In this document: piece by piece, positions 10,099 through 21,737 of the stretch | Numbering within the stretch: position 1 is the first letter of the stretch | Layout: each line of letters opens with the position of its first letter | Assembly: GCA_963666565.1 (NCBI GenBank) | Contig: OY762911.1 | Location: forward strand, 4,640,001-4,704,000 | From: Thermoanaerobaculia bacterium | GTDB lineage: Bacteria; Acidobacteriota; Thermoanaerobaculia; Multivoradales; Multivoraceae | Length of the DNA: 64,000 bases | Reading direction: 5' to 3' | Position numbers and translations under genes: made by a program | The notes under the pieces: generated by a model | What the model was told of the DNA's origin: nothing | Databases searched by the model: none | What the model saw: only the letters and a program-made list of their open reading frames with translations

Positions 10099-11759
10099 CA
10101 CGATCGGGGTCCCCCGCCCGCAGCCGGCGCCACGCCTGCACGGCGCCGGCGTGCGGGGAACCGGCCGCCGGCTGGGTGCGCGGGTCTTCCGACCCGCCGC
10201 CGCCGAAGGCGGCCGGAGAATCGGGCCGGCCGCAAGGCCGGCGCCGTTTCCGCGGCCAGTTCCCCGCCCGGCGGCGCGCCCGGTTCCGCGTAGACGCCGC
10301 CGCCCAGCGCGAGGATCAGGTCCGTCCGCGAGTCGAGTTGCTGACGTCGAGCCGCCAGCAACTGGCTCTCCGACTGAAACGACGTCCGCTGGCTGTCGAG
10401 CACCTGCAGGTAGCCGACGAGTCCCTCCCGGTAGCGGCCCTCCGCCAGGCGTTCCGCTTCCCGGCTCTCCGCCGCGGCCCGCTCGAGCGCCGCCGTCCGT
10501 TCCCCGAGCAGCCGTTCGGCGGCGAGGCCCGACTCGACCTCGGCGAAGGCCTGGAGCGCCGTCCGCAGCCAGTCCGCCTCCGCGGCGTCCAGGCCCGCTT
10601 CCACCAGATCCCGCCCGGCGCGCAGGCGGCCTCCGGACAGCAGGGGCTGTAGCAGGCCGGCGGCAAGGCTCCAGACCGAGAAGTCGCCGTCCAGCAGGTC
10701 GCGGAGCTCGCCGCTCGACGTGCCCGCCGATCCGTTCAGCGTGAAGCTCGGGTAGAGCGCCCGGTGGGCGGCGCGCAGCCGCTCCGATGCCGCGACCGCC
10801 CGGTACTCGGCCGCCCGCAGGTCCGGGCGGCGCGCGAGCAGAGCGGCCGGCGCCCCGGCCCCGGGCAGGGGTGGAAGCTCGGGCAGCCCCGCGGCCGCCT
10901 CGATCTCGGCGGCGGGATAGCGGCCGAGCAGGATCTCCAGTTGACGGCGCAAGCCGTCCAGGGTCTGCCGCTGCGCCGCCAGCGAGGCCTCCACCGCCGC
11001 GACCTGGGTCCGCGCCTGGCGCACCTCGAGCGCCGCCGCGACGCCGCGTCGGTAGCGGGCCTCCACCCGGTCGCGGGTCCGTTCCCGGCTGGCCAGGGTG
11101 CGCTCGGCCAACTCCACCTGCTGCGCCGCCTCGACGACGCCGAAGTACACCTTGGCGAGCTGGCCGGCGATCGAGAGCCGGGCGCCGTCGAGGTCCGCGC
11201 CGGCCGCGGCCGCCTCCGCCAGCGAGGCGGCGGTCAGCGCGCCGAGCCGGTCCCAGAGATCGACCTCCCAGCGGACGTTCAACGCCAGGCCGTACGACGT
11301 GAAGGCGAAGCTCCTCACGCCGCCGGGCTCGAAGCCGGGAATGGGGATCGGGATCGCCTCCGTCAGCCCGCTCTGCGCCGTGTTCTGTTTGCGCCGACCC
11401 GGGTCGAGCGACGCCTCCAGTTCCGGGTTGCGCGCCGCGCCGTCGAGCCGGGCCTGGGCCAGCGCGGCGTCGACGTTCAGAGCGGCGGCGCGGAGGCTGG
11501 CGTTGCGCTCCAGGCCCTCGACGACCAGCCGGGAAAGCAGCGGGTCGCCGAACGCCGTCCACCACTCCGCGTCGAGCGGCGGCGCCGCGGCCGGCGTTTC
11601 GGCCTCCGGCGCGGGGGCGCCCGCCTCCTGGCCGTAGACCGCCGGCACCGGCGCCTCGAGCTCCGGCGTCCGGGCAGCGCTGCAGCCGAGCAGCAGAGCC
11701 GCGCACGCCGCGAGAATGCGCGCACGCCGGACGCGACCCTGGAGTTCGGGGATCTTCAT
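10098..11759 (-). CDS. TolC/NodT-family outer-membrane efflux lipoprotein
   Basis: Lipobox LLLGC; WWTAFGDPLL, WEVDLWDRL, LLARRPDLRAAE and LILALGGG. Confidence 0.92.
   Translation of the reverse strand: MKIPELQGRVRRARILAACAALLLGCSAARTPELEAPVPAVYGQEAGAPAPEAETPAAAPPLDAEWWTAFGDPLLSRLVVEGLERNASLRAAALNVDAALAQARLDGAARNPELEASLDPGRRKQNTAQSGLTEAIPIPIPGFEPGGVRSFAFTSYGLALNVRWEVDLWDRLGALTAASLAEAAAAGADLDGARLSIAGQLAKVYFGVVEAAQQVELAERTLASRERTRDRVEARYRRGVAAALEVRQARTQVAAVEASLAAQRQTLDGLRRQLEILLGRYPAAEIEAAAGLPELPPLPGAGAPAALLARRPDLRAAEYRAVAASERLRAAHRALYPSFTLNGSAGTSSGELRDLLDGDFSVWSLAAGLLQPLLSGGRLRAGRDLVEAGLDAAEADWLRTALQAFAEVESGLAAERLLGERTAALERAAAESREAERLAEGRYREGLVGYLQVLDSQRTSFQSESQLLAARRQQLDSRTDLILALGGGVYAEPGAPPGGELAAETAPALRPARFSGRLRRRRVGRPAHPAGGRFPARRRRAGVAPAAGGGPRS
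10174..10214 (+). repeat. REP-like double-hairpin element, lying inside the 3' end of the TolC-family ORF
   Basis: GGGTGCGCGGGTCTTCCGACCCGCCGCCGCCGAAGGCGGCC matches the window-wide consensus. Confidence 0.85.
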
Positions 11760-11852
11760 CGGACAACTCCGGCCGCGAGACTACCCGTCGTCGGGGTCCG
11801 GCGCGGCGATCCGCTAGCGTCCCGCCATGGCTGCCCGCATGGAGGGAGCGCC

Positions 11853-12914
11853 GTGAGCGCCGCCGCGCCGTCCGGGCCGCCGCGCCCCGATCGCGGCCGC
11901 CGGCGCGCCCTGATCGAAGCCGCGGTGCGGGAGAACGAGGCCGAACTGGGCCGGCGGCGCGAGAAGGCCGCGAGCGGCGCCGGCCCGCCGGATCGCCGGC
12001 GCCGCCGCGTGCGTCGCCGGGTCCTGATGCTTTCGATCCCGGCCGCCTTCGCGGCGGCGCTCGGCTTCCTCGCACTGAATCCGCCGGACGCGGACTCGCC
12101 TTCCGCCGAGCCGACCGGCCGTCCACCGCCGGAGACCGAGGTTCTCTTCACCGGACCGCCGGCCTCGCTCGACCCCGACGTCTTCCCCCTGCCCGTGCGG
12201 CGGATCGTCCTCGATCCGGGCCACGGCGGCGCCGCTTCGGGCACGAGCGCCGACGGGCTGACCGAGAAGGCCCTCGCCCTCGACATCGCCCGCCGACTCC
12301 GCGACCTGCTCGTGGACGCGTACGGCGTGGCGCTGACCCGGGAAGCGGACATCGACCTGGACCTCGACCGCCGCACGTCGATCGCCAACCGCGCGGGCGC
12401 CGACCTGTTCGTGTCGATTCACGTCAACTGGCTGACGAGGAACCGGTCCTGCGGCGTCGAGACCTACTACCTCGGCCCCACCGACGACCCGGAGCTGTCC
12501 GCGCTCGCGGAACGCGAGAACTCGGAGGCCCAGGGCTACTCCCTCGGCGACCTGCGCCGGTTGCTCGACGGGGTATACGCCCAGGCCCGGCAAGACGACA
12601 GCCGCGCCCTGGCGACCGCGGTCCAGGAGTCGCTCTTCGAGCGCCTGCGCGCAGCGAATCCCGACCTCACGAACCGCGGCGTCAAGTCGGCGCCGTTCGT
12701 CGTCCTGATCGGCGCGGAGATGCCGGCGATCCTGGCCGAAGTCTCCTGCCTGTCCGACGCGGACGAGATCGAGCGCCTGCGCGACGACAGCCATCTGCAG
12801 GCGATCGCCGAAGCCCTGGACGCGGGGATCCGGAGCTATGCCGCCTCTCTGCTGCCCGAAGCGGAGACCGCCGGCGGCGACGCTAAGCTCCCCGGCGACC
12901 CGGACCGAAGATGA
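11853..12914 (+). CDS. Membrane-anchored N-acetylmuramoyl-L-alanine amidase (Amidase_3, AmiA/B/C-like)
   Basis: GTG start after GGAGGG; Arg-rich N-terminus followed by a TM helix. Zn-binding and catalytic motifs LDPGHGG, TEK, FVSIHVN and AILAEVS are intact. Confidence 0.9.
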   Translation: MSAAAPSGPPRPDRGRRRALIEAAVRENEAELGRRREKAASGAGPPDRRRRRVRRRVLMLSIPAAFAAALGFLALNPPDADSPSAEPTGRPPPETEVLFTGPPASLDPDVFPLPVRRIVLDPGHGGAASGTSADGLTEKALALDIARRLRDLLVDAYGVALTREADIDLDLDRRTSIANRAGADLFVSIHVNWLTRNRSCGVETYYLGPTDDPELSALAERENSEAQGYSLGDLRRLLDGVYAQARQDDSRALATAVQESLFERLRAANPDLTNRGVKSAPFVVLIGAEMPAILAEVSCLSDADEIERLRDDSHLQAIAEALDAGIRSYAASLLPEAETAGGDAKLPGDPDRR

Positions 12915-13972
12915 CCGCGCAGACCGCCGCCAGCACCGCAGGCACGACCAGGGGAGGGGTGCTCAAGGTGGGCATCGACCTGGGGACCTCCCGCAGTTCG
13001 ATCTCGGCCGCGAACGGCGAGCGCCACATGGTCCGGAGCTACGTCGGCTGGCCGCGGGACATCGTGGCCCGCAAGGTGCTCGGCCGCGACGTGCTGGTCG
13101 GCATCGAGGCCCTGGAGAAACGGCCGATGCTGGAACTGCGCCGGCCGCTCGAACGGGGGCTGATCAAGGAGGGATCGGAGCGCGACGAGCAGGCCGTGCG
13201 CGAGATCGTCCGGCGGCTGCTCGACCTGGCGGCGCCCGAGGAGCGGAGTCCGAGGCCGGCGATCCACGCCGTGGTCGGCGTGCCGGCCGAGACGCTGCGG
13301 GCGAACCGCCGGAACCTGCGGCGCATCCTCGAAGGCCAAGTCGCCAGCACGATGATCGTCTCCGAACCGTTCGCCGTCGCCTACGGCCTCGACGCCCTGG
13401 TCCACACGATGGTCGTCGACGTCGGCGCCGGCACCACGGACTTCTGCGTTCTGATGGGCCGCTTCCCGACCGAGGGCGATCAGCGCTCCCTGACCGTCGC
13501 GGGCGACGCCGTCGACCAGCGCCTGCACGCCCGGATCGAGGAGCGCTTCCCCGACGCCTCGGTCTCCATCCACATGGCGCGCGCGTGGAAGGAGCGGTAC
13601 GCCTTCGTCGGCGGGGGCGGTCCGGTCGTCGTCGAGGCGCCGGTGCGCGGCAAGCCGACCCCGCTCGACATCACCGAGCCCATGCGGACCGCCTGCGAGA
13701 GTCTGCTCGACCCGCTGCGCGAAACCTTGCTCGACCTGATCGCAAAGGTCGAACCCGAGTACCAGAACCGGGTGCGCAACAACGTGATCCTGACCGGCGG
13801 CTCGGGCCTGATCCGGGGCCTCGGCGCCGCGCTCCAGAACGCGCTCGGCGAGCTCGGAGGAGGCCGGGTGCGCGTGGTCAAGGACCCGGTCTTCGTCGGC
13901 TCCGACGGCGGCTTGACCCTGGCGAGGGACGTTCGGGAAGAGGACTGGCTGCGCCTGACCGGCGGCGGCTGA
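12911..13972 (+). CDS. mamK: MamK-like actin-family ATPase
   Basis: Actin motifs GIDLGTS, VSEPF, VDVGAGTTD and LTGGSG. Segments YVGWPRD, AVVGVPA, YGLD, EPEYQ and VKDPVFVG resemble Magnetospirillum MamK as recalled, rather than MreB. Confidence 0.82.
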   Translation: MTAQTAASTAGTTRGGVLKVGIDLGTSRSSISAANGERHMVRSYVGWPRDIVARKVLGRDVLVGIEALEKRPMLELRRPLERGLIKEGSERDEQAVREIVRRLLDLAAPEERSPRPAIHAVVGVPAETLRANRRNLRRILEGQVASTMIVSEPFAVAYGLDALVHTMVVDVGAGTTDFCVLMGRFPTEGDQRSLTVAGDAVDQRLHARIEERFPDASVSIHMARAWKERYAFVGGGGPVVVEAPVRGKPTPLDITEPMRTACESLLDPLRETLLDLIAKVEPEYQNRVRNNVILTGGSGLIRGLGAALQNALGELGGGRVRVVKDPVFVGSDGGLTLARDVREEDWLRLTGGG

Positions 13973-13977
13973 GCGCC

Positions 13978-14018
13978 GGGGGCGCGGGTCTTCCGACCCG
14001 CTGCCGCCGAAGGCGGCC
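13978..14018 (+). repeat. REP-like element between convergent genes
   Basis: GCGCGGGTCTTCCGACCCGCTGCCGCCGAAGGCGGCC. Confidence 0.85.
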
Positions 14019-14036
14019 AGAGAAACCCGCCGTCCG

Positions 14037-14795
14037 CTAGACCGGCGCCGCCGTCCTCGCCGGCGGCCCCGGCAGCAGGGACGCTAACTCGTCCAGGTCG
14101 GCCACCTTCGGGCAATCCACCTCCGGCCAGTCGCCCCACGGATCGAGCAGCACCGCATGAACTCCGGCGGCCCGCGCGCCGGCGACGTCGGCGGCGTAGA
14201 GGTCGCCGACATGCACCGTCCGTTCCGGCCGCGCGCCGGCCAGTTCGAGCGCGACCTCGAAGATCCGCGGGTCCGGCTTCTCGAACCCGACCGCAGTGGA
14301 GTCGACGAGGCCGTCGAAGAGATCGGAGTAGCCGATGTTCGAGACGGTCGTTCGCATCGTGCCGTCCGAGTTGCTGACCACGACCATCCGGTAGCCCCGG
14401 GCCCGGATCCGCTCGAGTGCTTCGCGGCTGCCGGGCAAGCTGCGGTTCCAGAGCCGGTCGTTGCGGCCGGGCGAGAAGAGACGGTTCGCCAGCGCGGAGG
14501 CGGCGTCGCCGGGGTCGGCGCCAGCGCGGCATGAAGCCGGAAGCCGCTCCAGGATCGCCCCCAGGTAGAAACGGAAGGCGTTGTCCCCCTCGGTCGTCCG
14601 CCGTTCGGCCAGGGCCGCGGAGAGCGCCGGCCGCGCCGCCGCTTCCGCACGCTCGATCTGGGCGCCGGAACACTCGACGCCGAGAGCTGCCGCGGCCGTC
14701 GCGACGCGGTCGAAGTCCATCGACAGGAAGGTGTTTCCCGCATCGAAGAAGACCGTGTCGAGTTCCTCCCAGGGAACCGGTCGCGCCGTCGCCAT
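14037..14795 (-). CDS. HAD-superfamily hydrolase
   Basis: Motifs FFDAGNT, VVSNSD, EKPDPRIF and HVGDLYAADVAGA. Confidence 0.9.
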   Translation of the reverse strand: MATARPVPWEELDTVFFDAGNTFLSMDFDRVATAAAALGVECSGAQIERAEAAARPALSAALAERRTTEGDNAFRFYLGAILERLPASCRAGADPGDAASALANRLFSPGRNDRLWNRSLPGSREALERIRARGYRMVVVSNSDGTMRTTVSNIGYSDLFDGLVDSTAVGFEKPDPRIFEVALELAGARPERTVHVGDLYAADVAGARAAGVHAVLLDPWGDWPEVDCPKVADLDELASLLPGPPARTAAPV

Positions 14796-16922: not shown

Positions 16923-19900
16923 TTGTCGCGAACCGGCCCAGGGGGTGCACGAGTGTCGGAAGGAGGGCTGAAGCGGTGCGGGGCATCGCGTCCGGAACGG
17001 CGCCGGGTCCGGCTGCCCGGGCTTCTGCTCGCCGCCCTCGCGGCCGCAAGCTCGTCCGCCGCCATGGCCACCGTACCGTCGAAACCGACGAAACCCACGG
17101 TGGCCGGCCAGGTCAGCGGCAGGGTCGCGCTTCAGTCCCAGGTCTTCTCGGAAGGCAGCTCGGCAATCACGAAGTGGCAGTACCAGGTCAAGAAGGGCGA
17201 GGGCGACTACAGCGGCTGGAGCCACATCGAGGCCTCCAACAAGCTGCTCGTCTTCACCCTTGGCGGCTTCGAGAACGGCGCCACCTACCGTTTCAAGGTG
17301 CGGGCCGTGAACGCCTCGGGCGAGGGCCCGGCCTCGGACGAATCCGACCCCGTGACCATCCCCGCCACGACCCCTTCCAAACCCACGGCCATCGGGGTTT
17401 CGGGGGACAACGCCTCGGTCGAGTTGACCTGGACCGCGGGGAGCGACGGCGGCGGAACGATCACCAAGTGGCAGTACCGGCAGAAAGCCGGCGAAGGAAA
17501 CTACGGCGCCTGGCTGGAAATCTGCAGGACGCAAACCGACGAGAACTGCCCGAACAAGGCCAGCCACACCGTCGACAGCCTGACCAACGGCACCGCCTAC
17601 AGGTTCAAGGTCCGCGCCGTGAACGGAACCGGCAACGGCGCGGCCTCCGACGAGTCCGCCGCCGTCACGCCGTCCACCACCCCCGCGAAGCCGACCGACC
17701 TGACCGTGGCGGCTTCCTGGCAGGCGGTCGACCTGGGCTGGACGGCGGGCGGCGACGGCGGCTCGGCGATCACCGGCTGGAAGTACCAACAGAAAGAAGG
17801 CAACAACAACTGGGGCGCGTGGCTCACCGTTCCCAACAGCGGAGCGAGCACCACCAGTCACACGATCACGGGCCTGACGACCGGCGCCGCCTATCGGTTC
17901 AAGGTTCGGGCCGTCAATGAAAACGGCGACGGCGCGGAGTCCGCCGCGTCCGCTTCGGCGACTCCCCCCGCCGCCACGCTCGCCGCCGGCGGCATCGCGG
18001 CGACGACCGCGACGCTGACGATCGGCAACTACACGGAGAGCTGGTACCGCAAGTACACCTCGCCCGCCGGCGGCGCGTGTTCCTCCACCGCCGTATCGAC
18101 CGCATCGACGACGGTGAACGACCTGAAAGAGAACACCTCCTACACCTTCGCGGCGTACACCGACGCCGCCTGCTCGACGCTGCTGGCCACCGCGGCGCCC
18201 TTCCCGACGCTGCCGCCCCAGCCCTCGAAGCCGGCGGCCACGGCGGGAACCAACGACGGCGAACTGATCCTGGCCTCGTCCGTCACGGGCGACGCCGCGC
18301 TGACCCGGTGGGAGTACAAGAAGAAGAGCGAGAGCGGCGCCTACGAGCCGGACTGGACGACCATGTCCAGCACCTCGGCGACGCTGAACCACACGGTCGC
18401 CGGTCTGACCGTCGGCACGAGATACCAGTTCAAGGTACGCGCGGTGAACGCCTCGGGCGCGGGCGCGGAGTCCGACGCCTCGACACTGGAGCGGGCGCCG
18501 GGCGAGGTCATCGAACCGGAGATCGAGTTCTACGCCATCGAGATCGGCCGGACCGCCGCGACCCTGGTCGTCTCCGGTTACCCGGGTCCGTGGTGGTACC
18601 AGGGCAGCCAGAAAGGAGCCGCCTGCACCGCGGTCGAGGCGGGGACCACGACGGTCAGCCTCATCGGTCTCAAGCCGGCCACTTCCTACACCTTCAGGGC
18701 CTACGGCGAGGCCGGTTGCCTGACCGACAGCGAACTCGCCAGCACGGAGATCACCACGCAGGACCCGCCGGAAGCGACGGCGCCGCCGGCGCCGTCGAGG
18801 CCGACGGCGACTCCCGGCCACGCTTCGGTGACCCTGACCTGGACCTCCAACGGCGACGGCGGCGCGGCGATCGGCAAGTGGCAGTACGTCAAGAGAGTTG
18901 GCGACGGCAGCTTCGAGACCGAATGGACCGACGTTCCCGGCGGCGGCGACGCCAGGACCTGCACCGTCGACGGCCTCGTCGCCGGAACCGCGTACCGGTT
19001 CATGCTGCGGGCCGTCAACTCCGTCGGCGCCGGCGCCCCCTCCGCCCCGTCGGCCGCCGCGATCCCGACCGACCTGGGACCGACGGTGCGTTCGCCGCTG
19101 CAGGACGTCGCGCTGCCGCTCGGAGGCGCGCCCGTGTCGCTCGACCTGGCGATCTCGTTCGCGGGCGAGGACCTGACGTGGGAAGCGTCGGTCGAGGACG
19201 AAGCCGTAGTCGGCATCCGCCTCGCCGGGCCGTCCCTGACGCTGTCTCCGCTGGCGCTCGGACGCACCGCGGTCACGGTGACCGCCGCGAACGGCTACGG
19301 CTCGGTCAGCCTGGCGTTCGCGGTCGACGTGCGGGACGCCATGCCATTCGTCGGCCGGCGGCTGCCGAACGCCACGATCCGGGTGGACGAAGGTCCCTTG
19401 CGGATGGAACTCGCGGACGCCTTTGGCGGCACTTCGCTGCGCTACGCCGCGTCGTCCTCGAACCCGGATGTCGCGCGGCTCTCGCTGGAAGGCAGCCGGC
19501 TGGTCGTCCGCCCGACCGGCGCCGGCATGGCGGACATCTCGGTCGCCGCGTCCAACGGCGTCGGCGAGGCGAAGCAGACCTTCAGGCTGACCGTGCGCGA
19601 CGCGCCGCCCCGGGCTGTCGGCACGCTGCCGGACCTGGAATTGGCGCCCGGCGACGACCCGGTCCAGATCGACATCGGACCGGCGTTCACCGGCTCCTCG
19701 CTGGTCTTCTCGGCGTCATCGTCCAACTCCGCCGCGGTTGCGGTCAGCGTGTCCATGCCGGTCGACGGCGGCGGAACCCTGACCTTGCTGCCACTGGCCG
19801 TCGGGCGGGCAACGATCGCCGTCCGTGCCACGAACGTCTCCGGCGACGCCGTTCAGCGCTTCACGGCGACGGTCGCAGATCGCGCGCCGGAGGTCGTCGG

Positions 19901-21737
19901 CGGACTGCCCGCCGTGACCCTGACCGCCGGCGGCGCAGCAAGAACCGTCGACCTGGCGCCTGCCTTCGGCGGCACGAACCTGGTCTTCGAGGCGGCTTCG
20001 CTCGATCCGGGCGTGGCGCGAGTCTCCGTCGCCGGAGCGTCGCTCACGGCCTCGCCGGTGCGGGAGGGCCGGACCGAACTGGTCGTCGCGGCGTCGAACA
20101 GCGCGGGGCGCGCCGAGCAGCGCTTCGCGGTCGTCGTGGTCACCTCCGCGGCGGAAACGGAAGTGCTCGAGAACGCGCTGGCGGCGGTAGGCCGCGCGAC
20201 GCTGACGAGCGTCGCGGCGACGGTCCGGTCCCGCTTTGCGACGAACCGCGACAACGCCGGGATACGGATTCTCGGGCAGGAGATCCCGCTGGCGGGCGGC
20301 GACGCCGGGAATCGCCTCGGCGGCAGCGCCGGAACGACCCGCTTCGGCGGCGGCTACGGCGGCCTTGGCGGCCATGACCGGAACGATCCGAACGCCCGCT
20401 TCGCGGATCGGGCGCTGGCCAGCCTCTCCTTCGAGATCCCGTTCAGCGCCGCCGCGGCAGAGAGCGCCGAAGGCGAAGAGGCCCTCGGACGCTCCCGGTC
20501 CTGGGCGCTCTGGGGCAGCGGCGACCTGGTCTCCTTCGACGGCTCGGAGCTGGAAGACGCCTCCTTCAGCGGCGACGCCCGCACCTTCTACGTCGGCGTC
20601 GACGGTCCCGTCGGCGAGCGCTGGCTGGCCGGAGTCGCGGTCTCCAGCCTCGACGCCCGAATCGACTACGCCTTCGCCTCGTCCGGCGAGGGCGCGGGCG
20701 GCGAGGGCGAAATGCGTTCCGAGCTCGCGTCCATCCTCCCCTACGCGCGGTACGACGCCGGAGGCGGCCGCGAGTTCTGGGCAGCGCTCGGCGCCGGCAG
20801 CGGCGACGCCAGTCTGGACCGCCAGCTAGCGGACGCCGGCGACCTGGACCCGGAGAAGAGCGACCTGTCCCTGCTGATGGGCCTGGTCGGCGGACGCTGG
20901 CGCCTCGGCGGCAGCGAAATGGACCTGGCGCTCGTCGGCGACGCCGGCTTCGCGGAGCTGGAGACCGACGTCGGCGAACGGGCGGTAGACGGCCTCGCCG
21001 CCCGCGTGTCGAGACTGCGCCTGGGTCTGGAGTTCTCGCGCGCCCTCGCCGCCCGCCATGGTTCCGTGACGCCGTTCGGCGAAGTCTCCGCCCGCCACGA
21101 CGGCGGCGATGGCGCGAACGGCGCCGGGCTGGAGGTCGCCGGCGGCCTCCGCTACCGGAGCGCCTCCGGCCGGGTGCGGTTCGAGGTGCAGGCGCGGACA
21201 CTGGCGCTGCACGCCGAGAGCGGCTATCGCGAGACGGGCTACTCGCTGAGCGCGTCGGTCGAGCCGCGCGAGGGCGGCGCCGGCTTCTCCCTGTCCGTCA
21301 CGCCGACCTGGGGCCGGATCGGCGGCGCATCCCTCTTCGAGGGGACGTCCTCCGTGCGGTCGCTGGCCGGCGCCGCTCTGCCCGGCGCAAGCCACGGACA
21401 GACGATGTCGTTCCGCACCCGCGCCGCCTACGGCTTCCGGCTGGGCCTCCCGGCAGCGCTGCTCGCGCCGTTCGGCGAGTATGAAACCCACGGCGCAGGC
21501 CCCGCCAGAGTCCGAGGCGGGTTCTTCTTCGGCCTCGAGCGCCGCCGCCATACTCTGACGGTGGAGCTTTCGACCGGCGCGGGAGGCGGCTTCGGCGCAT
21601 TCTCCCTGTCTCCGGCGCCGGCAGCGCCGGCGAACCGCGCCGGCGTCGGCGATCTCCAGAGCGGCGCCCTGACCCACGCCCTGACCGCGACCGTCCGCTT
21701 CGCGCCGCCGAGAGGAGCCTCGCCGAGAAGGCCGTGA
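16923..21737 (+). CDS. Large fibronectin type III / Ig-like repeat surface protein with C-terminal autotransporter-like beta-barrel
   Basis: Signal peptide; five FN3 repeats ending in a YxFx(V/L)RAVN motif; two Cys-containing FN3-like units; four Ig-like repeats; C-terminal barrel-type sequence (WALWGSGD, LPYARY, TPFGEV, GLEVAGG). Confidence 0.85.
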   Translation: MSRTGPGGARVSEGGLKRCGASRPERRRVRLPGLLLAALAAASSSAAMATVPSKPTKPTVAGQVSGRVALQSQVFSEGSSAITKWQYQVKKGEGDYSGWSHIEASNKLLVFTLGGFENGATYRFKVRAVNASGEGPASDESDPVTIPATTPSKPTAIGVSGDNASVELTWTAGSDGGGTITKWQYRQKAGEGNYGAWLEICRTQTDENCPNKASHTVDSLTNGTAYRFKVRAVNGTGNGAASDESAAVTPSTTPAKPTDLTVAASWQAVDLGWTAGGDGGSAITGWKYQQKEGNNNWGAWLTVPNSGASTTSHTITGLTTGAAYRFKVRAVNENGDGAESAASASATPPAATLAAGGIAATTATLTIGNYTESWYRKYTSPAGGACSSTAVSTASTTVNDLKENTSYTFAAYTDAACSTLLATAAPFPTLPPQPSKPAATAGTNDGELILASSVTGDAALTRWEYKKKSESGAYEPDWTTMSSTSATLNHTVAGLTVGTRYQFKVRAVNASGAGAESDASTLERAPGEVIEPEIEFYAIEIGRTAATLVVSGYPGPWWYQGSQKGAACTAVEAGTTTVSLIGLKPATSYTFRAYGEAGCLTDSELASTEITTQDPPEATAPPAPSRPTATPGHASVTLTWTSNGDGGAAIGKWQYVKRVGDGSFETEWTDVPGGGDARTCTVDGLVAGTAYRFMLRAVNSVGAGAPSAPSAAAIPTDLGPTVRSPLQDVALPLGGAPVSLDLAISFAGEDLTWEASVEDEAVVGIRLAGPSLTLSPLALGRTAVTVTAANGYGSVSLAFAVDVRDAMPFVGRRLPNATIRVDEGPLRMELADAFGGTSLRYAASSSNPDVARLSLEGSRLVVRPTGAGMADISVAASNGVGEAKQTFRLTVRDAPPRAVGTLPDLELAPGDDPVQIDIGPAFTGSSLVFSASSSNSAAVAVSVSMPVDGGGTLTLLPLAVGRATIAVRATNVSGDAVQRFTATVADRAPEVVGGLPAVTLTAGGAARTVDLAPAFGGTNLVFEAASLDPGVARVSVAGASLTASPVREGRTELVVAASNSAGRAEQRFAVVVVTSAAETEVLENALAAVGRATLTSVAATVRSRFATNRDNAGIRILGQEIPLAGGDAGNRLGGSAGTTRFGGGYGGLGGHDRNDPNARFADRALASLSFEIPFSAAAAESAEGEEALGRSRSWALWGSGDLVSFDGSELEDASFSGDARTFYVGVDGPVGERWLAGVAVSSLDARIDYAFASSGEGAGGEGEMRSELASILPYARYDAGGGREFWAALGAGSGDASLDRQLADAGDLDPEKSDLSLLMGLVGGRWRLGGSEMDLALVGDAGFAELETDVGERAVDGLAARVSRLRLGLEFSRALAARHGSVTPFGEVSARHDGGDGANGAGLEVAGGLRYRSASGRVRFEVQARTLALHAESGYRETGYSLSASVEPREGGAGFSLSVTPTWGRIGGASLFEGTSSVRSLAGAALPGASHGQTMSFRTRAAYGFRLGLPAALLAPFGEYETHGAGPARVRGGFFFGLERRRHTLTVELSTGAGGGFGAFSLSPAPAAPANRAGVGDLQSGALTHALTATVRFAPPRGASPRRP

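Follow-up and report, generated by a model that had tools for sequence, protein, structure and literature searches.

Whether an actin of the MamK family can guide a cell-wall hydrolase outside a magnetosome context is the question raised by two overlapping genes in a 64,000-nucleotide (nt) stretch of DNA, hereafter the window, from a Thermoanaerobaculia bacterium (assembly GCA_963666565.1, contig OY762911.1, positions 4,640,001 to 4,704,000). Gene 1 encodes P0001, a bitopic N-acetylmuramoyl-L-alanine amidase, and gene 2 encodes P0002, an actin-like ATPase. The placement of peptidoglycan hydrolases is a central open problem of morphogenesis, for which MreB, FtsZ/FtsA with FtsEX, and the bactofilins are the known answers. 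The original prediction, made from the letters alone, had read the two genes as an undescribed cytoskeletal module in which a MamK-like actin works with a wall hydrolase, and this reading is now supported by the conservation of the pair, the monophyly of its actins, a motif in the amidase tail and an interface prediction. We consider it probable that the genes form a self-contained, co-translated morphogenetic module of two members, whose actin recruits or moves a latent amidase. Such an actin-amidase module would be a cytoskeleton-guided peptidoglycan hydrolase whose actin comes from a family until now associated with magnetosomes. In PubMed Central (PMC) and bioRxiv, a scope outside which subscription journals and supplements fall, no paper was found in which a MamK-type actin is connected with an amidase or the clade is described.

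The actin and the amidase as a gene pair

Each species was represented by one genome in a pattern scan, which returned at least 577 relatives of the actin; the 80 best, with actins of 57-89% identity, were fetched. An amidase was located by tblastn immediately upstream and on the same strand in 79 of these 80 best genome loci, a recurrence far beyond chance. According to the record titles, 68 loci belong to Acidobacteriota, 4 to Binatota, 4 to 'delta proteobacterium', and one each to Methylomirabilota, Rokubacteria, Myxococcota and Verrucomicrobiota, and some of them lie on megabase contigs. For locus L068, the label 'Udaeobacter' is based on a 5.4-kb contig in a metagenome-assembled genome (MAG) and may be a binning error. 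When all open reading frames (ORFs) of the 80 loci were clustered all against all, the only common ones were the actin (80/80) and the amidase (78/80 as ORFs); the other large clusters were antisense shadows of these two. No third conserved gene was found: the commonest real neighbour family reached no more than 18 of the 80 genome loci and no more than 13 of the 80 metagenome loci. Among 68 complete junctions, 59 fell between -17 and +9 nt and 10 had the same 4-nt overlap as the window, distances that are biased short in that the start nearest the stop was taken. The hexamer AAAGGA often occurs within the 3' end of the amidase gene, just ahead of its stop.

Sampling of 401 Acidobacteriota genomes gave the actin in 30, the window genome among them. 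In the others it was present in 9/9 members of the genus, 7/8 of the order, 8/21 of the class and 5/362 of the rest of the phylum, so that its distribution is patchy and concentrated in Thermoanaerobaculia. Further Acidobacteriota loci from this sample had the amidase upstream in 4/4 cases, two of them with actins of 50-51% identity. We also ran a profile-free search of 1.84 billion cluster representatives, which yielded 981 relatives at E ≤0.001 and 159 at E ≤1e-30. The nearest representative outside the window's clade, P0123, was used as a query on metagenome contigs. The amidase lay upstream in 73 of 80 loci of this sister clade, and the remaining seven have at most 333 nt of upstream sequence (contig ends). 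Of the 67 metagenome loci that have 700 nt or more upstream, 63 satisfied a strict rule of 0-300 nt between the genes, and at least one of the four that failed (L101) did so solely through overlap of its high-scoring segment pairs. The amidase adjacency, set beforehand as the test on which the proposal could fall, is thus kept in both sister clades and in several phyla.

In another phylum, that of the genome carrying L068, a MamK-family gene is present in 15 of 301 genomes. The amidase is upstream in both members (2/2) at about 50% identity to P0002, and 11 other loci there, at 33-41% identity, have no amidase. Most of these 11 exceed the NCBI cut-off for MamK; their neighbours include a 663-amino-acid (aa) coiled-coil protein and a YgiQ radical-SAM protein, with no Mam family among the neighbours scanned.

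Distances between amidase catalytic domains and between actins correlated at r = 0.94 over 144 loci, a value that none of 500 label permutations reached. By this sequence comparison the pair is inherited as a unit, and it has probably been transferred as one. In one locus (L087; G220:C61:77488-78492), the actin gene contains a single in-frame TAA with the amidase still present upstream, which could mark a pseudogene or a sequencing error.

The amidase, its cytoplasmic tail and the predicted contact

The Pfam scan of P0001 gave PF01520 (Amidase_3) at residues 118-327 (E 2.7e-41, 141.9 bits) and no second domain. The membrane-anchored Amidase_3 with an intact H/E/H/E set that had been described from the translation stands: H124, E138, H190 and E296 do not vary among 30 aligned homologs, and the transmembrane helix appears in the AlphaFold2 model (mean predicted local distance difference test, pLDDT, 81). 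The closest solved relatives by sequence are AmiA (8c2o), AmiC (4bin) and AmiB (3ne8). The alignment to Escherichia coli AmiA and AmiC and to Bartonella AmiB runs end to end, regulatory insert included, and the top fold match is autoinhibited AmiA 8c2o, with a target-normalised TM-score of 0.83 over all 228 target residues. All NCBIfam equivalogs scored below their cut-offs (AmiA 84.1 against 400, AmiC 76.9 against 700, AmiB 52.1 against 532).

According to the accessible part of PMC10268282, the zinc ligands of AmiA are His65, Glu80, His133 and Asp135, its latch is Glu167 of the blocking helix, and its EnvC-binding helix comprises residues 180-192. With the chain offset counted in the alignment to AmiA 8c2o, the four ligands and the latch correspond to H124, E138, H190, N192 and E222 of P0001, and the EnvC-binding face (L184, L185, V188, L189 and L192 of AmiA) to L237, L238, V241, Y242 and A245. 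All these P0001 residues are invariant in the 30 homologs save Y242 (≥90%) and A245, and N223 of the regulatory insert is invariant too. Judged from sequence and model, P0001 belongs to the autoinhibited, activator-dependent AmiA/B/C class, a point that the original prediction had missed. Considering that the blocking helix and the activator-binding helix are both retained, P0001 should be latent, and we infer the need for an activator.

In the AlphaFold2 model, the N-terminal part of P0001 runs from a helix (residues 14-33) through a disordered basic stretch and a membrane helix (48-75) to a low-confidence linker of about 40 residues. The N-terminal helix and the membrane helix stand where an export signal or a septal targeting domain would be, and the basic stretch followed by a hydrophobic span is retained in 30/30 aligned homologs. 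The Arg-rich tail that had drawn attention before is indeed present in the translation, but the key feature is instead the conserved helix with its invariant Asn: in the 30 homologs N28 is the sole invariant residue outside the catalytic domain, and V25 is conserved at ≥90%. The tail motif can be written h-h-x-x-[AV]-[VY]-x-[ED]-N; the window has LIEAAVREN, and ILRGVYEEN is the typical form of the sister clade. The motif was found in 73 of 74 N-terminal regions of the window's own clade (1.2 expected from shuffles) and in 53 of 56 of the sister clade (1.7 expected), and of the four regions that lack it, at least three are truncated or come close to it.

For the complex prediction, the P0002 alignment was combined with residues 1-56 of the amidase in three runs and with three controls. 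The interface score ipSAE was 0.82 (runs 0.82, 0.83 and 0.80), against 0.01 for the best control. In the calibration of the tool, 58 of 80 solved complexes but only 2 of 110 mismatched pairs attained its mark, counts that hold only roughly here because our own alignments were used. The three runs had at least 75% of contacts in common, with a tail pLDDT of 61-62. The tail contributes residues 16-32 to the predicted interface; these form the conserved helix, and the tightest contacts include those of N28, V25 and A24. The actin contributes residues 133-137, 147-164 and 183-185 together with its C-terminal helix (337-351), which by the secondary structure of the model form the cleft between subdomains IA and IIA. 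Modelling the actin with the amidase N-terminal tail, as had been suggested, therefore gave a contact that passes a controlled prediction.

The actin within the MamK family and the surroundings of the locus

The best NCBIfam model for P0002 was that of MamK (NF040964), at 350.5 bits with a cut-off of 400, followed far below by BeeR (194.5 against 530) and the MreB models TIGR00904 (43.5 against 365.75) and PRK13927 (54.8 against 293). The closest solved relatives were likewise MamK (5ljw, 5jyg and 5ljv; E 6e-79 to 1.5e-78, residues 18-349), then BeeR (8r2n; E 3.5e-41) and then MreB (E about 1e-10), and Foldseek with the AlphaFold2 model returned the same ranking. The 353-residue actin had been credited with intact ATPase motifs, and the motif residues proved invariant in 28 homologs: D23 of phosphate-1, E152, D170/G172/G174/T175 of phosphate-2, and G296/G297 of the adenosine motif. 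Sequence and model together characterise P0002 as an actin fold with intact nucleotide-binding motifs, and it presumably polymerises with ATP. Its core begins at residue 17-18; apart from the 17 or so low-confidence residues ahead of it, P0002 has no membrane-targeting region. Relatives within the clade also scored below 400 on NF040964 (P0122 at 392.7, and 372-384 for the genomes of L028, L037, L061 and L068), whereas P0123, L177 and L179 of the sister clade were over the cut-off, at 424-442.

An identity with MreB was rejected: both MreB models are far under their cut-offs, and the canonical MreB of the genome (468.9 bits on Pfam MreB_Mbl) adjoins MreC at 0.87 Mb. BeeR was rejected as well, on its score, on the core that starts at residue 17-18 and on its separate clade. 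Could P0002 be the magnetosome MamK of a cryptic magnetotactic bacterium? Its closest solved relative is indeed MamK, but we give this reading next to no weight. Four families, MamI, MamO, MamP and MamQ, were scanned (no models of MamA, MamB, MamE, MamL or MamM were used), and none gave a match over its cut-off in the genome: MamI had no match anywhere, and MamP, MamQ and MamO reached 31.5, 76.7 and 78.5 bits against cut-offs of 300, 250 and 800. These weak hits are scattered and reflect generic PDZ, LemA and protease signal, as they do in control genomes. No mamAB-type cluster lies at the unit, whose neighbours are an efflux operon and a hydrolase gene. With a score under 400 bits and a clade apart from that of Paramagnetospirillum and Magnetococcales, the magnetosome MamK reading was rejected, and the claim of a MamK-family actin outside a magnetosome context is borne out within the four families scanned.

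The tree comprised 101 rows (representatives, labelled loci and the MreB of the genome as outgroup) and was computed with a short IQ-TREE search under LG+C20 with posterior mean site frequencies (PMSF), with support from the Shimodaira-Hasegawa-like approximate likelihood ratio test (SH-aLRT). All 22 amidase-linked rows fell into one 35-row clade (SH-aLRT 100), and all eight rows without amidase fell outside it, so by this phylogeny the amidase-linked actins share one origin. The clade consists of two subclades, one of the window type (SH-aLRT 100) and one of the P0123 type (95). A separate 17-row clade (SH-aLRT 98) holds the MamK-like P0194 of Paramagnetospirillum magneticum, P0202 of Magnetococcales, and P0140, which scored 508 bits on the MamK model; rows of the BeeR type (506-562 bits on the BeeR model) form their own clade, apart from both the amidase-linked and the magnetotactic one. 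Of the loci that group with the next sister group (P0128, P0129 and P0183), L172 and L173 are without amidase and one is cut by a contig end. In the MreB-rooted tree the amidase-linked clade is nested among several non-magnetosome MamK-family clades with other neighbours. On these sequences the MamK family is mostly non-magnetosomal and occurs in several distinct gene contexts. The suggestion that the pair might reveal the ancestral, pre-magnetosome role of MamK found no support here: the clade is one nested among several, and since the deep forks are unsupported, the tree gives no answer on which context is ancestral.

Other members of the family came to light on the way. At L175:5745-9088 (and also at L176 and L180-L183), an actin of another MamK-family clade, with about 37% identity to P0002 and 421-435 bits, has no amidase; in L175 the genes upstream code for a protein of 117 aa and a coiled-coil protein of 663 aa that has weak SMC-like matches, and no Mam genes were found near the actin. 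By its sequences, this clade may be another non-magnetosome MamK module. At L171:5708-8373, tandem MamK-family genes (494 and 492 bits) lie by a YgiQ radical-SAM gene and small ORFs without a family match, with no Mam family among the five neighbours scanned. P0136, P0138, P0141, P0152 and their relatives form a clade of fused proteins of 700-1232 aa with a C-terminal MamK-like domain, and their N-terminal 400-900 residues have no Pfam match. Public names vary: among P0013-P0119, members of the amidase-linked clade are called 'rod shape-determining protein MreB', and one member of the P0123 cluster 'MamK family actin-like protein [Nitrospira sp.]'.

The features of the unit are collected in Table 1. 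The earlier description of the sequence was correct, with the ORFs where it had placed them, the two-gene unit with its ATGA overlap readable directly, and the bounding elements as described. On the upstream side, a divergent resistance-nodulation-division (RND)-type efflux operon encodes an OEP outer-membrane factor and an HlyD-type fusion protein; on the downstream side, a HAD hydrolase gene is convergent. The repeat that closes the unit is a GC-rich 35-nt sequence with 310 copies in the genome at ≤4 mismatches (161 forward, 149 reverse), eight of them in the window. It is a member of an intergenic element family resembling repetitive extragenic palindromes (REP) and marks the boundary of the two-gene unit without being specific to it; the 68-nt stretch around it (13973-14040) has a folding energy of -37.2 kcal/mol.

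Table 1. Positions of the features of the amidase-actin unit and of the repeat copies in the window
Feature	Position	Strand	Basis or remark
Shine-Dalgarno-like GGAGGGA	11841..11847	+	5 nt 5' of the amidase GTG; read directly
Gene 1, bitopic N-acetylmuramoyl-L-alanine amidase, P0001, 353 aa	11853..12914	+	ORF, Pfam, solved relatives, fold; start GTG at 11853, stop 12912-12914
Cytoplasmic N-terminal helix, residues 14-33, predicted actin-binding peptide	11892..11951	+	AlphaFold2 model, conservation, complex prediction
Conserved motif L20-I21-E22-A23-A24-V25-R26-E27-N28	11910-11936	+	30-homolog alignment
Transmembrane span, about residues 57-76, after basic RRRRRVRRR	12021..12080	+	Translation, model helix 48-75
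Amidase_3 catalytic domain, residues 118-327; H124, E138, H190, E296	12204..12833	+	Pfam, alignment
Regulatory insert: blocking helix 213-227 and activator-interaction helix 231-241	12489..12575	+	AmiA alignment, model helices
ATGA start/stop overlap between both genes, translational coupling	12911..12914	+	Read directly
Gene 2, MamK-family actin-like ATPase of the amidase-linked clade, P0002, 353 aa	12911..13972	+	Start ATG 12911, stop 13970-13972
REP-like 35-nt repeat, hairpin	13984..14018		Directly 3' of the actin stop
Further copies of the 35-nt repeat	10180, 21804, 31684, 41962; reverse strand 35155, 44597, 62009		

The source genome is a single contig of 4,786,144 bp and is 97% complete. 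It holds two other Amidase_3 genes and five M23/LytM genes, all away from the unit, and neither the neighbour families nor the genome scan for M23/LytM gave an FtsEX or LytM gene adjoining it. Elsewhere in the window, a 1604-aa ORF at 16923-21737 (+) in the ORF list starts with a signal-like N-terminus, repeats a module of about 100 residues many times and is rich in Gly in its C-terminal region.

Proposed mechanism, alternatives and known systems

In the mechanism that we favour, gene 2 would give a cytoplasmic MamK-family actin that polymerises with ATP, and gene 1 a single-pass inner-membrane protein with a 20-residue cytoplasmic helix, a flexible periplasmic linker of about 40 residues and a periplasmic amidase domain. 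The cytoplasmic helix, which bears the motif, would dock in the IA/IIA cleft of the actin. With the helix docked, the polymer would set where the amidase sits, clusters or moves in the envelope, and a periplasmic activator of the LytM type would open the latent enzyme. The actin would then provide position and the activator timing. We infer both polymerisation and recruitment.

Several observations count against this mechanism or narrow it. The contact between tail and actin is predicted, and its score expresses the confidence of a model rather than a measurement, with a tail pLDDT of only 61-62; only one of the five AlphaFold2 models of P0002 was confident (81.9, the others 52.7-71.6). Conservation of the actin interface was neutral both within the clade (0.70 against 0.68 elsewhere) and outside it (retention of 0.37 against 0.42 elsewhere). 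Co-divergence of the two proteins amounts to inheritance as a unit and does not show physical contact. The tree comes from a quick search with SH-aLRT support alone, and its one outgroup is a long MreB branch. Every carrier seen is uncultured and known from a MAG, as are all 80 best genome loci, or from a metagenome contig. A look-up of RNA data for positions 11700-14100 of the window listed none. At the single exception among the 80 best loci (L015, 114-3000), the actin has no amidase, and upstream stands a 433-aa ORF that is unrelated to the amidase and without a Pfam family match; this locus could have arisen by rearrangement, or by a join made during assembly of that MAG. The regulation of the enzyme may also depart from that of AmiA. 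The AmiA residue Asp135 is the fifth zinc ligand of the resting state and leaves upon activation, and at its position P0001 has N192 (nt 12426-12428), an Asn invariant in the 30 homologs, which hints from sequence at a modified resting-state zinc site; autoinhibition may therefore differ in detail. Finally, by analogy with other actins, binding in the cleft may be confined to filament ends or compete with polymerisation, rather than decorate the filament.

The last point leads to an alternative in which binding by the tail helix is restricted to free monomers or the terminal subunit, so that the amidase nucleates or caps the filament or is pushed by it. The IA/IIA cleft is the usual docking site of actin-binding helices and also a longitudinal contact site in filaments, and ParR docks ParM there. 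Because the helix would occupy this cleft, monomer or end binding would follow, and pushing or treadmilling of the ParMRC type would transport the amidase, perhaps towards the poles or round the cell, with no static scaffold. The predicted interface in the cleft and C-terminal helix fits this alternative, as does the fact that the closest solved relatives, MamK and BeeR, form filaments of the cytomotive type. However, the present evidence does not separate side from end binding, and the occlusion of the cleft in a filament is an analogy with other systems; as the cleft doubles as a filament contact site, side, end or monomer binding are all possible, and we judge binding restricted to ends or monomers to be unlikely. 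A bolder extension, which we put forward tentatively and regard as doubtful, is a third bacterial actin-based system of wall remodelling beside MreB and FtsA, in which a filament carries or pushes a latent amidase in a ParMRC-like manner and MamK is an offshoot. A dynamic filament would grip the amidase helix in a cleft of the barbed-end type and move the enzyme through the plane of the membrane. If so, the pattern in which periplasmic peptidoglycan is cleaved would be dictated by the nucleotide-driven dynamics of a cytoplasmic filament, and the MamK of magnetosomes would be a single specialised branch of a family that mostly organises the envelope or other non-magnetic cargo.

The amidase might also serve mainly as a membrane anchor for the filament, with the real cargo elsewhere (DNA, a storage granule or an envelope machine) and hydrolysis secondary. 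An actin without a membrane-targeting region of its own would be tethered by the tail and transmembrane architecture of its partner. Against this, the catalytic residues, the Glu of the blocking helix and the activator face are invariant or nearly so in both clades, which argues for selection on regulated hydrolysis, and no third conserved gene is at hand to act as a cargo adaptor; we therefore hold an anchor role to be quite unlikely. Still lower stands co-expression without contact, an operon kept because both genes serve a single process, for instance division or a response to stress. Neither operon conservation nor co-divergence requires binding, and the neutral interface conservation suits this account. 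But a periplasmic enzyme that bears a conserved cytoplasmic helix with an invariant Asn calls for a partner in the cytoplasm, the actin is the only co-conserved cytoplasmic protein, and the complex prediction separates the pair from its controls (0.82 against 0.01), so that a pair without contact appears very unlikely. An actin that recruits or moves the latent amidase remains the reading that we prefer.

The module is compact, widespread and genetically isolated, a MamK-family actin hard-wired to a single amidase. It is spread over at least 577 species-representative genome matches and two clades in Acidobacteriota, Binatota, Methylomirabilota/Rokubacteria and others, and its carriers are non-magnetic soil and marine bacteria. 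It would offer a minimal two-protein system for how a cytoplasmic filament positions a periplasmic enzyme, with a predicted interface that is short, precise and easily mutated. Annotation needs correction too, for the names 'MreB' and 'MamK family' would mislead surveys of rod-shape or magnetotaxis genes.

Among known systems, MamK of Magnetospirillum (5ljv, 5ljw, 5jyg) is closest to P0002 by sequence and fold, with the same ATPase motifs and the same top NCBIfam model. P0002 differs in its score under the cut-off (350.5 against 400), in its other, well-supported clade and in its partner, a wall amidase; MamJ and MamY are the magnetosome partners of MamK. Precedents for an actin homologue that governs a hydrolase or binds a bitopic partner are MreBH with LytE in Bacillus subtilis and MreB with RodZ. 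However, LytE is a secreted NlpC/P60 endopeptidase whose gene is not known to form a coupled pair with mreBH, RodZ is not an enzyme, and both actins are of the MreB family. BeeR, a tubular three-stranded actin of Verrucomicrobiota, is a relative of MamK in non-magnetotactic bacteria; as far as the available portion of PMC11929497 goes, it is much more distant (25-30% identity to MamK), its hallmark is a disordered N-terminal extension of 30-50 residues, and no partner or function is named. Like P0002, it is a MamK relative outside magnetotaxis, and it is the second-best solved relative of P0002; unlike BeeR, P0002 scores 194.5 bits on the BeeR model, has about 17 residues ahead of its core and no long extension, and belongs to a separate clade.

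The septal amidase systems FtsEX-EnvC-AmiA/AmiB and NlpD-AmiC share with P0001 the class of amidase, the Glu latch and a hydrophobic interaction helix (PMC10268282, in part). In both, as proposed here, a cytoplasmic ATPase activity would ultimately govern the action of a periplasmic amidase. AmiA, AmiB and AmiC are soluble periplasmic proteins, whereas P0001 is anchored by its own transmembrane helix and has a further helix in the cytoplasm. In its logic, the bactofilin BacA with LmdC is the closest analogue. According to the text of PMC10945521 at hand, the bacA gene adjoins that of the bitopic M23 endopeptidase LmdC in many species, and LmdC's short cytoplasmic stretch at the N-terminus binds the BacA polymer and is needed for LmdC localisation. 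Conserved adjacency and a bitopic hydrolase with a cytoplasmic tail are also seen here, and binding of the tail to the polymer, known for BacA-LmdC in that source, is predicted for P0001 and P0002. The two systems nevertheless differ in that BacA is a nucleotide-independent bactofilin, LmdC is a DD-endopeptidase and its binding element is a beta-hairpin, and the sequences have no kinship.

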